This document shows positions 20,010 through 22,523 of a stretch of DNA of 39,467 bases, in pieces. This DNA is from a virus: UHGV virus genome UHGV-0285531; one strand, written 5' to 3'. The first letter of the stretch is position 1. Each line of letters starts with the position of its first letter. The translations under genes were made by a program, and so were the position numbers. The notes below the pieces were generated by a model. It was not told where the DNA came from and ran no database searches. It worked only from the letters and a program-made list of their open reading frames with translations.

Positions 20010-20273
20010 ATGGGCCGACTTTATAGTGGCAACCTAAACGCTTTCAAAGCAGCGTGTAACAGGCTCTATCAGTTAGACTTCGCTGTCATATCTCAGGAGT
20101 TTCAAGACCTTGCGTCACGCCAAGAGTGTATGAGACTCAGGGTGGAGGACCGAGCTGGTAACATCTTCGCGCTTGTAACCTTCGCACGCTACGATGAAGA
20201 CGTGCTGTATAACACTGCAACCGACTACCTCAACGGTCTCGCTGACCATCTCGACACATGGAGCAAATCATAA
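20010..20273 (+). CDS. 1.2: gp1.2-like protein (dGTPase inhibitor homologue)
   Basis: 87 aa starting MGRLYSGNL..AFKAA, matching recollected T7 gp1.2 N-terminus and length. Confidence 0.75.
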   Translation: MGRLYSGNLNAFKAACNRLYQLDFAVISQEFQDLASRQECMRLRVEDRAGNIFALVTFARYDEDVLYNTATDYLNGLADHLDTWSKS

Positions 20274-21328
20274 TGACTACGACTATTAAAACTAACCCGC
20301 ACCGCGCTGTAGATTACTCTGAGTCTGGCGTTAAGAAGGCACTGGAAGCAGCCGGGTCTCTGGAAGCTGAAGTGAAGTACGACGGTGTGCGCCTGAATCT
20401 CCCGGTCTTCCCTACTGGTGAGACTCAATGGTTGAGCCGTGAGTCTAAAGAGCTTCCGGCCCTAAGCTGGCTGGGCACATCCGGTGACGACATCGGTGCT
20501 GCCAAGGCTAGCGACTGGCGATGGTTCCTTAAACAGGCTGGATACGAAGGTACTGGCCTGATGATTGACGGCGAGGTGATGGTAAAGGGTGTAGACTTCA
20601 ACACATCCTCAGGACTTATTCGCACGAAGTGGCTGAAGCCTGATAACCTAAAGTTCAATGACGTAAAGTTTGACGAGATGCCTCGTAAGTCTACAGGCGC
20701 TAAGTCTAAACTTCCGTTCCTACTGGCAGCCGAGCACATCCAAGTGGTTGTATACGGGATTATTGACCTTAACGTCATCCTCGACCCAAAAGCTGAAGGG
20801 CCTATCCACAGCGTAACGCGACTGAAGGCCGAAGCTGTCGTCCCTCTCCTCCAGAAATACTTCCCGGAAATCGACTGGGTGCTATCTGAGAGTCATACAG
20901 TGTTTAGCTTAGACGAGCTTACTGACTTGTATGAGAAGAAGAGAGAAGAGGGCCATGAGGGTCTGGTAGTTAAAGACCCACTGGGACGCTGGAAGCGTGG
21001 CAAGAAGTCAGGTATGTTCAAGATGAAACCAAGCGAAGAGGCAGACGGTCACGTTGTACGGCCTATATGGGGAACAGAAGGTCTAGCCAACGAAGGTATG
21101 GTCATCGGCTTTGACGTTATGCTTGAGAACGGGATGGAGGTCTCCGCAACTAACATTAGTCGCGCCCTAATGTCCGAGTTCACCGAAAACGTTAAGTCCG
21201 ACCCTGATTATTATAAAGGCTGGGCCTGCCAGATTACCTACATGGAGGAGACACCAAGTGGCTTACTACGGCATCCCTCGTTCGACCAGTGGCGTGGAAC
21301 TGAGGACGACCCTACGGTCAAGATTTAA
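20273..21328 (+). CDS. 1.3: ATP-dependent DNA ligase (T7 gp1.3-like)
   Basis: Track ORF 20258-21328; preferred ATG 20273 (MTTTIKTNP... aligns with T7 start); KYDGVR adenylation motif, EGHEGLVVKDP, KSGMFKMKP, C-terminal LRHPSF. Confidence 0.9.
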   Translation: MTTTIKTNPHRAVDYSESGVKKALEAAGSLEAEVKYDGVRLNLPVFPTGETQWLSRESKELPALSWLGTSGDDIGAAKASDWRWFLKQAGYEGTGLMIDGEVMVKGVDFNTSSGLIRTKWLKPDNLKFNDVKFDEMPRKSTGAKSKLPFLLAAEHIQVVVYGIIDLNVILDPKAEGPIHSVTRLKAEAVVPLLQKYFPEIDWVLSESHTVFSLDELTDLYEKKREEGHEGLVVKDPLGRWKRGKKSGMFKMKPSEEADGHVVRPIWGTEGLANEGMVIGFDVMLENGMEVSATNISRALMSEFTENVKSDPDYYKGWACQITYMEETPSGLLRHPSFDQWRGTEDDPTVKI

Positions 21329-21719
21329 AGCAGACAGGGCGGCTCCCTCTGGAGTCTCCAACCTAAACGGTAGACATCTTGGCTATAGACGAAAGGATGG
21401 GTACTGGATTCTAAGTACGACAAAGGGCCAACTGCTGGCCCACCGAGTAGTCTGGGAACTAACCAACGGTCCTATACCAGAAGGGATGGTGATTGACCAT
21501 ATCAACCGGGACCCTTCGGATAACAGGATTGAGAACCTCAGGTGTGTGACTCAGGCGGTGAACCTAACTAACGTTCCAACCCGTAGTCACTGCCAATCTG
21601 GAGAGAAATACGTTCAATACCAGAAATCAACTGGTCGCTGGCAACTGCGGATAAAGCGTAAGTCATACGGTACGTTCGATACCATAGCCGAGGCAGTAGC
21701 CTTAAGAGATTCATTATAA
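21258..21719 (+). CDS. HNH homing endonuclease with C-terminal AP2-like DNA-binding domain; start uncertain, overlaps ligase 3' end
   Basis: HNH motif MVIDHINRDPSDNRIENLRCVTQAVN; C-terminal KYVQYQKSTGRWQLRIKRKSYGTFDTIAEAVALRD is AP2-like; only in-frame starts are GTG 21258 or GTG 21294, both inside the ligase gene. Confidence 0.75.
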   Translation: MAYYGIPRSTSGVELRTTLRSRFKADRAAPSGVSNLNGRHLGYRRKDGYWILSTTKGQLLAHRVVWELTNGPIPEGMVIDHINRDPSDNRIENLRCVTQAVNLTNVPTRSHCQSGEKYVQYQKSTGRWQLRIKRKSYGTFDTIAEAVALRDSL

Positions 21720-21725
21720 CGTCAA

Positions 21726-21757
21726 CCCAGTGGTCTTCGGACTGCTGGGTTTATTTG
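21726..21757 (+). terminator. intrinsic terminator (TE-like early terminator)
   Basis: CCCAGUGGUC-UUCG-GACUGCUGGG 10-bp stem with UUCG tetraloop followed by UUUAUUUG; after ligase/HNH, before next phage promoter. Confidence 0.7.
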
Positions 21758-21778
21758 CGTCTGGGCCACAAGCCTGAC

Positions 21779-21801
21779 CCTAAGCTATCACTATAGGACA
21801 A
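21779..21801 (+). promoter_or_regulatory. phage RNAP promoter (phi1.5/1.6-like), +1 G at 21796
   Basis: ccctaagctatcactataggaca (one substitution upstream of core). Confidence 0.7.
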
Positions 21802-21829
21802 CCATAACTTCGACCTAAGGAGGCCGACC

Positions 21830-22090
21830 ATGTTTAAGAACTTAATGTTCAACCGTTATTCAAATACCTTCCACCTGTCCAACAACCCGTTCGCTTGCAT
21901 TAAGCGCAACGAGAAGCTGGGCTACTTCGGGAAGGCCGTTAAGCTGTCACCTACAGTCTTCGCTCTGGTTACTCCAGGCAAAGCTGAAGAGGCTCGCCAG
22001 AAGCGTGAGACCAACGTACCCGTGGTCTACACTAAGTGGCCTCGCGTTCGTCTGTTCGTTGAGTTCGTGAAGGAGGTGATCAATGGTTAA
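21830..22090 (+). CDS. gp1.6-like hypothetical protein (86 aa)
   Basis: ATG 21830 after AAGGAGG; position equivalent to T7 gene 1.6. Confidence 0.5.
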   Translation: MFKNLMFNRYSNTFHLSNNPFACIKRNEKLGYFGKAVKLSPTVFALVTPGKAEEARQKRETNVPVVYTKWPRVRLFVEFVKEVING

Positions 22091-22523
22091 GGTGGGGGAT
22101 ACAGTTAACTATGTTGGACCAGTTGGAGCCCACACGGGACGCTCCTGTGGCAAGGTGATAGTGGTTAAGAATGAGCATGTGGCTGTTGTTAAGTGGCCCC
22201 GTTTATCTGAACCACTCACTCACTCCATTAGTTCCTTAAGTATTACCAAGCAGGCGCAGTCCGAGCCGACAACCATAGGTCAGGAAGATAGCGTCCGTAA
22301 GCCATCTCACTATCAGGTCTTTGACGGTGTGGAATCAATTGAGATTATCGCTCGGTCAATGACTGTCAGCGAGTTCCGTGGGTTCTGCATGGGTAACGTC
22401 CTGAAGTATCGACTCCGAGCTGGTAAGAAGTCAGAGCTAGCAACTATGGAGAAGGACCTAAACAAAGCGGCCTTCTATCAGGAGCTGTTCGACCTGCATA
22501 AAGGTAAGTGCTATGACGTATGA
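22083..22523 (+). CDS. 1.7: gp1.7-like nucleotide kinase with divergent N-terminus
   Basis: C-terminal KPSHYQVFDGVESIEIIARSMTVSEFRGFCMGNVLKYRLRAGKKSELATMEKDLNKAAFYQELF matches recollected T7 gp1.7 C-terminus; 146 aa vs 196 in T7. Confidence 0.7.
   Translation: MVKVGDTVNYVGPVGAHTGRSCGKVIVVKNEHVAVVKWPRLSEPLTHSISSLSITKQAQSEPTTIGQEDSVRKPSHYQVFDGVESIEIIARSMTVSEFRGFCMGNVLKYRLRAGKKSELATMEKDLNKAAFYQELFDLHKGKCYDV

Follow-up and report, generated by a model that had tools for sequence, protein, structure and literature searches.

A gene 1.45-family HNH endonuclease gene in a K1F-like phage, with a translation start that seems to lie within the adjoining DNA ligase gene

Where does a gene begin when its only upstream start codons lie inside the preceding gene, and is such an overlap a sign that the gene arrived recently? 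The question is raised by an open reading frame (ORF) for a putative HNH endonuclease directly downstream of the DNA ligase gene in UHGV-0285531, a 39,467-nt stretch of viral DNA that we refer to as the window and on whose scale all coordinates are given (Table 1). It represents, in permuted form, the genome of a K1F-like phage of the T7 group (genus Kayfunavirus). Its region 20900-22100 has 99.8% identity with Escherichia phage SR04 and matches in 217 phage records. A first-pass annotation, made from the window sequence alone, had described the ORF as a recently inserted, free-standing HNH-AP2 homing endonuclease gene overlapping the 3′ end of the ligase gene. The gene is intact, and we consider it likely that it specifies a free-standing homing-type endonuclease of the gene 1.45 family, the function being predicted. 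The protein most likely begins inside the ligase gene, at GTG 21258, and comparison among carriers identifies the 71-nt overlap as an old trait of the family and no mark of recency.

The listing of ORFs and starts bears out the description of a 153-aa ORF with only two upstream starts. The frame is +1 relative to that of the ligase, and GTG 21258 and GTG 21294, both within the ligase gene, are the sole in-frame ATG, GTG or TTG codons ahead of an internal ATG at 21486. The overlap amounts to 71 nt from the first and 35 nt from the second, and the codon for F23 (TTT, 21324-21326) shares the first base of the ligase stop. The interval 21258-21768 originally assigned to the gene covers the ORF together with the terminator that follows it; the ORF itself stops at 21719. 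As had been proposed, the gene sits between the ligase gene and an early, TE-like terminator (TE being the early terminator of this phage group), for which a fold is found at 21724-21757. It is a stand-alone ORF between the ligase stop and that terminator, both flanks being intact in phages with an empty site, and no paralogue of the protein was found elsewhere in the window (best E 2.1).

Pfam HNH_3 (PF13392) matches residues 60-102 with E 1.4e-22 and 79.5 bits against a cut-off of 24.8, far beyond chance, and in PHROGs the protein falls in HNH endonuclease families. Among 38 homologues, D80, H81, N89, N93 and N105 are invariant and N102 nearly so, so the catalytic residues expected of an HNH enzyme are in place. 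D80, H81 and the asparagines line up with the DH...N...N of I-HmuI, the motif being the H-N-N variant present in that enzyme and not a literal H-N-H. I-HmuI (Bacillus phage SPO1, PDB 1u3e), an intron-encoded HNH nicking homing endonuclease in contrast to the free-standing gene of the window, is found from sequence alone at E 9.5e-4. An AlphaFold model built from the 38 homologues (mean predicted local distance difference test score 88) predicts an I-HmuI-like fold with its beta-beta-alpha element plus an AP2-type tail. As modelled, the protein would consist of an I-HmuI-like HNH (H-N-N) domain with an N-terminal beta-sheet, followed by an AP2-type DNA-binding tail in which a three-stranded sheet is packed on a C-terminal helix, as in AP2 (PF00847). 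The C-terminal DNA-binding part of I-HmuI is helical (helix-turn-helix) and not of the AP2 type.

The first-pass annotation had named both an HNH motif and an AP2-like tail and had suggested a profile search for the two. That search recovers HNH_3 strongly, while Pfam AP2 gives no match at E ≤ 10 to the full protein or to the isolated tail, which counts against the AP2 part of the call. Two homologues (P0058 and P0023) exceed the AP2 cut-off with 35.1 and 39.3 bits and align column by column with the window tail, and the family profile matches the AP2 domain of WRI1 at E 1e-6. The tail stands as a diverged AP2 domain, recognised by its predicted fold and by aligned homologues rather than by the Pfam model. 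Phage endonucleases with recognisable HNH_3 and AP2 domains (PF13392 + PF00847) have the same domain order, and the homologues matching both models align over their full length with the window protein. The loop that joins strands 2 and 3 is shorter in the window tail than in theirs, and this tail lies under Pfam AP2 detection; moreover, these homologues have an ATG of their own, whereas the window gene starts in the ligase gene.

By tblastn, a corresponding gene lies directly past the ligase stop in phiYeO3-12 (gene 1.45, CAB63597), CLB_P1 (gp1.45, AGD81040), KP32 (gp9), Ebrios and LL2, as it does in the window. Past the ligase stop, the protein is 100% identical to that of SR04 (where it is unannotated), 87% to CLB_P1 gp1.45 and 70% to phiYeO3-12 gp1.45 (129 residues). 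By these alignments the gene is an orthologue of gene 1.45 of Yersinia phage phiYeO3-12 and a member of the Studiervirinae gene 1.45 group. In the phiYeO3-12 GenBank record the gene is labelled "homologous to HNH endonuclease" and has the same +1 frame and 71-nt overlap as in the window. Both the gene family and its overlap with the ligase gene were thus already annotated in phiYeO3-12, and to this extent the finding is an ordinary one. We found no literature on gp1.45 or gene 1.45, and the phiYeO3-12 gene is known to us through its GenBank annotation alone. The start is GTG in the clade of the window and ATG in phiYeO3-12, while the annotated start in CLB_P1 is an ATG further downstream, which is missing in the window.

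Annotation of the gene is uneven across GenBank records. In four records it starts inside the ligase gene and in two at a downstream ATG near the ligase stop; eight cut it to 77-99 aa from an internal Met, and five have no corresponding coding sequence. The 77-aa versions and the missing calls in related records are probably wrong. The truncated annotations are doubtful because a start at M76 would drop the whole N-terminal, DNA-contacting sheet that is common to I-HmuI-type enzymes.

Is the overlap a trace of recent arrival, as the first-pass annotation had supposed? We compared 26 carriers of the gene (20 from GenBank and 6 from IMG/VR) with 22 non-carriers, a small sample, given that few T7-like ligase loci came out of two IMG/VR scans by protein and one scan for a DNA pattern. 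The carriers belong to Kayfunavirus, Teetrevirus, Teseptimavirus, Przondovirus and Ningirsuvirus, and also include Erwinia phage vB_EamP-L1, whose protein has the same leader. In all 26 the HNH frame is +1 to the ligase, is open into the ligase gene, and has a start codon whose distance upstream of the final base of the ligase stop is exactly 70 nt (position -70; 21258 in the window). This codon is ATG in every carrier outside the clade of the window, which has GTG. Synonymous divergence (dS) of the HNH core between the window clade and the JSS1 clade is approximately 1.1-1.6, so that synonymous sites are saturated, and it falls within the range seen along the ligase gene (0.5 to >1.5, computed on a protein-guided alignment). 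Because the HNH core dS lies in the ligase range, the gene appears either to have been long at the site or to have moved among carriers that diverged long ago. The idea that the overlap is typical of a recent insertion does not hold up: overlap, frame and start position are common to all carriers, synonymous sites are saturated, and no sign of recent arrival was seen. The ligase gene is itself strongly mosaic; in comparisons with L001, L004 and L007-L009, dS exceeds 1.5 in its 5′ third, is about 0.5 in its 3′ third and 0.2 in its last 72 nt.

The start codon and a Shine-Dalgarno (SD)-like GGAGGAG before it both arise from ligase codons, ATG GAG GAR ... GAT GG. GGAGGAG is invariant in carriers and kept in most non-carriers because the ligase peptide is conserved. 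The codon at -70 is less constant outside the carriers: of the 22 non-carriers, 12 have ATG and nine have ACG, which corresponds to a synonymous GAC in the ligase frame and occurs in T3 (a close relative of phiYeO3-12) and CR44b among others. A stop codon interrupts the +1 frame before the ligase stop in 9/22 non-carriers, and start and open frame occur together in only 9/22, compared with 26/26 carriers (Fisher p = 2.6e-6, ignoring shared ancestry).

Patterns of selection indicate where the frame is entered. Between the window and the JSS1 clade, the ratio of nonsynonymous to synonymous divergence (dN/dS) is 0.01-0.04 in the HNH core, 0.15-0.44 in the tail and 0.07-0.17 in codons 25-47. The last of these lie directly past the ligase stop and upstream of every canonical start that follows it. 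Since their dN/dS is 0.07-0.17 at saturated dS, codons 25-47 appear to be translated in the HNH frame, with entry at or before the ligase stop. Within the overlap (21258..21328), dN/dS in the HNH frame is approximately 1.1-1.4, which suggests that the leader sequence is dictated by the ligase. In distant homologues located away from ligase genes, a conserved aromatic motif, [FY]-x-[YF]...PSG, is preceded by an ATG of the gene itself at a distance of 4-10 residues. F23 of the window protein aligns with this N-terminal motif, and AlphaFold places a confident strand at residues 23-25. The sole start common to all carriers is the one at -70. On this evidence, the gene would have no translation initiation region of its own; translation would begin at GTG 21258 (ATG in other clades) by means of the GGAGGAG provided by Met-Glu-Glu of the ligase, and the first 23 residues would be a leader fixed by the ligase sequence.

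A comparable situation has been described in T4, where 5 of 12 free-standing endonuclease genes overlap the upstream ORF, which was read as keeping expression low (PMC2988022). Like the window gene, the seg and mob genes of T4 are selfish genes for nucleases that lie between other genes and have an initiation region that is weak or missing. Their overlaps are 1-24 bp (PMC2988022), in contrast to the 71 nt of the window, where start and SD-like sequence come from conserved codons of the host gene; moreover, seg genes encode GIY-YIG nucleases and the window gene an HNH nuclease. We tentatively propose, at somewhat less than even chances, that the gene 1.45 family has lost its own start and obligately uses the start and SD-like sequence embedded in the ligase gene (Met-Glu-Glu...Asp-Gly), with ligase GAT and not GAC at the start (AGT in the window clade). 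The gene would then be translated only if joined in the +1 frame to the ligase 3′ end. A frozen hairpin shortly past the ligase stop would provide a second element in cis, limiting expression for instance as an attenuator or a substitute for TE. If this is true, carriage of the element constrains a synonymous site of the ligase gene.

Several observations weigh against a start within the ligase gene and against the function assigned, in addition to the missing Pfam AP2 match. The contrast between carriers and non-carriers is phylogenetically non-independent. Both the SD-like sequence and the ATG at -70 result incidentally from the conserved ligase peptide and also occur in 12/22 non-carriers, so that their presence by itself is weak proof. 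The window clade has GTG and not ATG at -70, with a second GTG at -34 (21294), and the ATGs gained by PH1061 and CLB_P1 at +11 and +35 past the ligase stop indicate that other initiation sites can arise. Use of the start codon and production of the protein are deduced from sequence, and nuclease activity, target and homing of gene 1.45 members are proposed by analogy.

Given these points, could the same gene be initiated differently in the window clade, at GTG 21294 or through reinitiation or a non-canonical start near the ligase stop? GTG 21294 does exist in that clade, ATGs have appeared downstream in PH1061 and CLB_P1, and in T4 the free-standing endonuclease genes have been suggested to rely on coupling or on scanning near the stop of the upstream gene (PMC2988022). 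However, the GTG at -34 is peculiar to the window clade and is not preceded by an SD-like sequence, the window has GCG and CTA at the positions of the PH1061 and CLB_P1 ATGs, and -70 is the only start that all carriers have in common. We therefore regard another initiation site as unlikely and GTG 21258 as the favored start.

The distribution of the gene supports its reading as a mobile and dispensable element. The whole interval is covered in only 12/217 related GenBank records, and K1F has a precise empty site, with the 5 nt CTAAA between ligase TAA and terminator stem where the window has 391 nt. Far from being conserved at this position in all relatives, the gene is thus absent from most of them. 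Alignment with relatives lacking the ORF defines the insertion as 21329-21719 against CTAAA in K1F, and the K1F-type empty site reads ...AAGAGCTAA CTAAATGTCAACCCAGTGG... The 3′ junction differs in Teetrevirus: in phiYeO3-12 the gene stands in place of the 47-nt spacer that holds the terminator TE in T3 and runs into promoter phi1.5, while the window gene lies upstream of an intact TE-like terminator. Domain content, patchy presence and the K1F empty site together support the original description of a free-standing, putatively homing HNH endonuclease gene between ligase and terminator.

Intermediate states of the locus are also found. Two non-carrier Kayfunaviruses, L101 and L103 (Citrobacter phage CR44b), retain deletion remnants of an HNH gene, 13 nt from its 5′ end and 23 nt from its 3′ end, and in CR44b, where the gene is lost, the codon at -70 is now ACG. 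Of the gene in L123 and L134, two Przondovirus-like contigs, the 14 codons next to the ligase stop are left. L107 (IMGVR_UViG_3300045988_000160, positions 1327-1738) has at the same site a different HNH core with a canonical SENNQN motif and low identity to the window protein, while its last ~40 nt and part of its first ~13 nt are common to the window allele, as if one allele had been exchanged for another like a cassette. Compared with Zappy (L006), the window has 780 nt of identical ligase sequence (20477-21256), about a dozen differences in the HNH gene and a 15-nt indel past the terminator, a pattern suggestive of recombination with its breakpoint in or close to the boundary of the two genes. 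The fall in ligase divergence towards the 3′ end likewise hints at exchange there, but both patterns might equally reflect general mosaicism.

Located upstream of the TE-like terminator, the HNH gene would be an early gene co-transcribed with the ligase gene. By analogy with I-HmuI and the T4 seg and mob enzymes, its product would nick or cut relatives without the gene near the junction of ligase stop and terminator, and recombinational repair from a carrier genome would then copy the gene in. Nuclease specificity, low-level expression, the start codon used and homing itself are all points that we infer. It might be argued that the nuclease has instead been domesticated and aids the phage, for example by excluding T7-like competitors or through an action on DNA of the host or DNA undergoing replication. 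Such a role would agree with purifying selection that is strong and with a gene that has long stayed at one locus in several genera. Carriage by 12/217 relatives and repeated deletions fit a dispensable selfish element better, and in practice one and the same cleavage would both exclude a competitor and bring about homing, so that we find domestication quite improbable and retain selfish homing as the likely role.

The hairpin after the ligase stop is present in the window and at the same position in L007, L011, L012, L014 and L098-L100, with a loop of TTCG or CTCT. Its stem codons are GCT, GGA and GTC in all eight carriers, from four genera, and the two loop codons vary. The three stem codons are four-fold degenerate yet frozen, while only 10% of 58 other codons for invariant amino acids are represented by a single codon. 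Pairs barely vary, and no covariation was detected; shuffles equal the observed values, so that this result is uninformative. The single-sequence fold is no better than that of shuffled sequences (z -0.49). W2B has no hairpin at this place and L107 has a different one. In the phiYeO3-12 record the equivalent hairpin is labelled a putative early terminator (TE), and the location of the hairpin, as well as part of its sequence, is similar to that of the T3 TE. The window hairpin lacks a U tract, and the gene is there followed by a complete terminator.

Such a hairpin could also be the stimulator of a +1 frameshift at or near the ligase stop, yielding a ligase-HNH fusion. The HNH frame is +1 to the ligase in every carrier, the hairpin lies 13 nt past the stop with stem codons frozen across genera, and selection on the linker needs only that the frame be entered at or before the stop. 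Conversely, the last ligase codons vary by genus (ATT TAA, GTA TAA, ATA TAA) with no shared slippery motif; for the hairpin no covariation is seen, nor does W2B have it. A frameshift needs neither an open +1 frame from -70 nor an NTG there, yet both are found in 26/26 carriers, and 9/22 non-carriers have a stop inside the -70 stretch. A fusion made in this way is very unlikely in our view. Programmed +1 frameshifting was likewise judged unlikely for want of a conserved slippery or hungry-codon site at the shift point. Initiation within the ligase gene is therefore kept as the preferred explanation of the overlap. Finally, it is extremely unlikely that the gene is a decaying pseudogene that has lost its own start, is accidentally open into the ligase gene and is heading for deletion. 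In its favor, no in-frame ATG, GTG or TTG follows 21294 in the window until 21486, automatic annotation skips or truncates the gene in 13/20 GenBank carriers inspected, and deletion remnants show that the locus does decay, but dN/dS is 0.01-0.17 over linker and core between synonymously saturated clades, the catalytic residues are invariant, and the frame is intact with its start at the same place in 26/26 carriers.

Table 1. Features of the ligase-gene 1.6 interval of the window, and remnants of the HNH gene in two relatives
Feature	Coordinates	Strand	Remarks
ATP-dependent DNA ligase (gene 1.3)	20258..21328	+	Pfam DNA_ligase_A_M and DNA_ligase_C; ORF list
SD-like GGAGGAG	21244..21250	+	Ligase codons Met-Glu-Glu; 7-9 nt upstream of GTG 21258; putative ribosome-binding site
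HNH-AP2 endonuclease ORF	21258..21719	+	153 aa including leader; stop TAA 21717-21719; orthologue of phiYeO3-12 gene 1.45
Ligase/HNH overlap	21258..21328	+	71 nt; last 71 nt of ligase gene = HNH leader residues 1-23
Ligase stop	21326-21328	+	TAA
Inserted segment relative to K1F-type empty site	21329..21719	+	391 nt; alignment and junction listing
Hairpin/palindrome GGCTCC-CTCT-GGAGTC	21341..21356	+	Codes A-P-S-G-V; 13 nt past ligase stop
HNH_3 nuclease core	21435..21563	+	Residues 60-102; beta-beta-alpha-metal fold
AP2-type DNA-binding tail (predicted)	21597..21713	+	Residues ~114-152
TE-like intrinsic terminator	21724..21757	+	12-bp stem, UUCG loop, U-rich tail
Phage RNA-polymerase promoter	21779..21801	+	phi1.5/1.6 position; upstream of gene 1.6
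Gene 1.6	21830..22090		Next gene after promoter
HNH gene remnants	L101:1327-1362, L103:1327-1362		Two non-carrier Kayfunaviruses; internal deletion derivatives

Downstream of the gene, the stem-loop of the terminator (21724-21751, 12-bp stem with UUCG loop, then UUUAUUU) has a folding energy of -20.6 kcal/mol (z -3.9, ViennaRNA) and is kept in carriers and empty-site phages alike. A simple scan for consensus terminators did not flag this hairpin on the + strand. The promoter core TCACTATAGGA has 10 matches in the window with at most one mismatch, compared with 0.76 expected by chance; the 23-bp extent of the promoter was set by analogy with the T7 promoter. Between terminator and promoter, after window position 21759, some relatives have a segment of 17-19 nt, CTTTGTGCTAGCAAGCTAT or variants of it. 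It is found in EFA-1, Zappy, PH1061, JSS1, L101, L103 and L106 and is absent from the window, SR04, CHRF_30111 and K1F. The first of these, L005 ("Enterococcus phage EFA-1", MT350292.1, flagged UNVERIFIED_ORG), is a Kayfunavirus with 96% identity to the window in the region; it was deposited as a phage of Enterococcus faecalis, a host assignment that is probably wrong.

For the window, the annotation is settled in that the gene is real and intact, with 153 codons. Knowledge of HNH endonucleases as such is unchanged by these findings, which are relevant to the evolution of T7-like phage genomes and to phage engineering. The modest new point is that a start within ligase codons seems to be needed by the family, accompanied by a corresponding synonymous bias in the ligase gene. 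The locus would be a case, open to testing, of a selfish element that takes its translation start from the host gene next to it. Within one phage subfamily, the locus presents the full life cycle of a homing endonuclease gene, as intact alleles, an apparent allele swap, remnants and clean empty sites.

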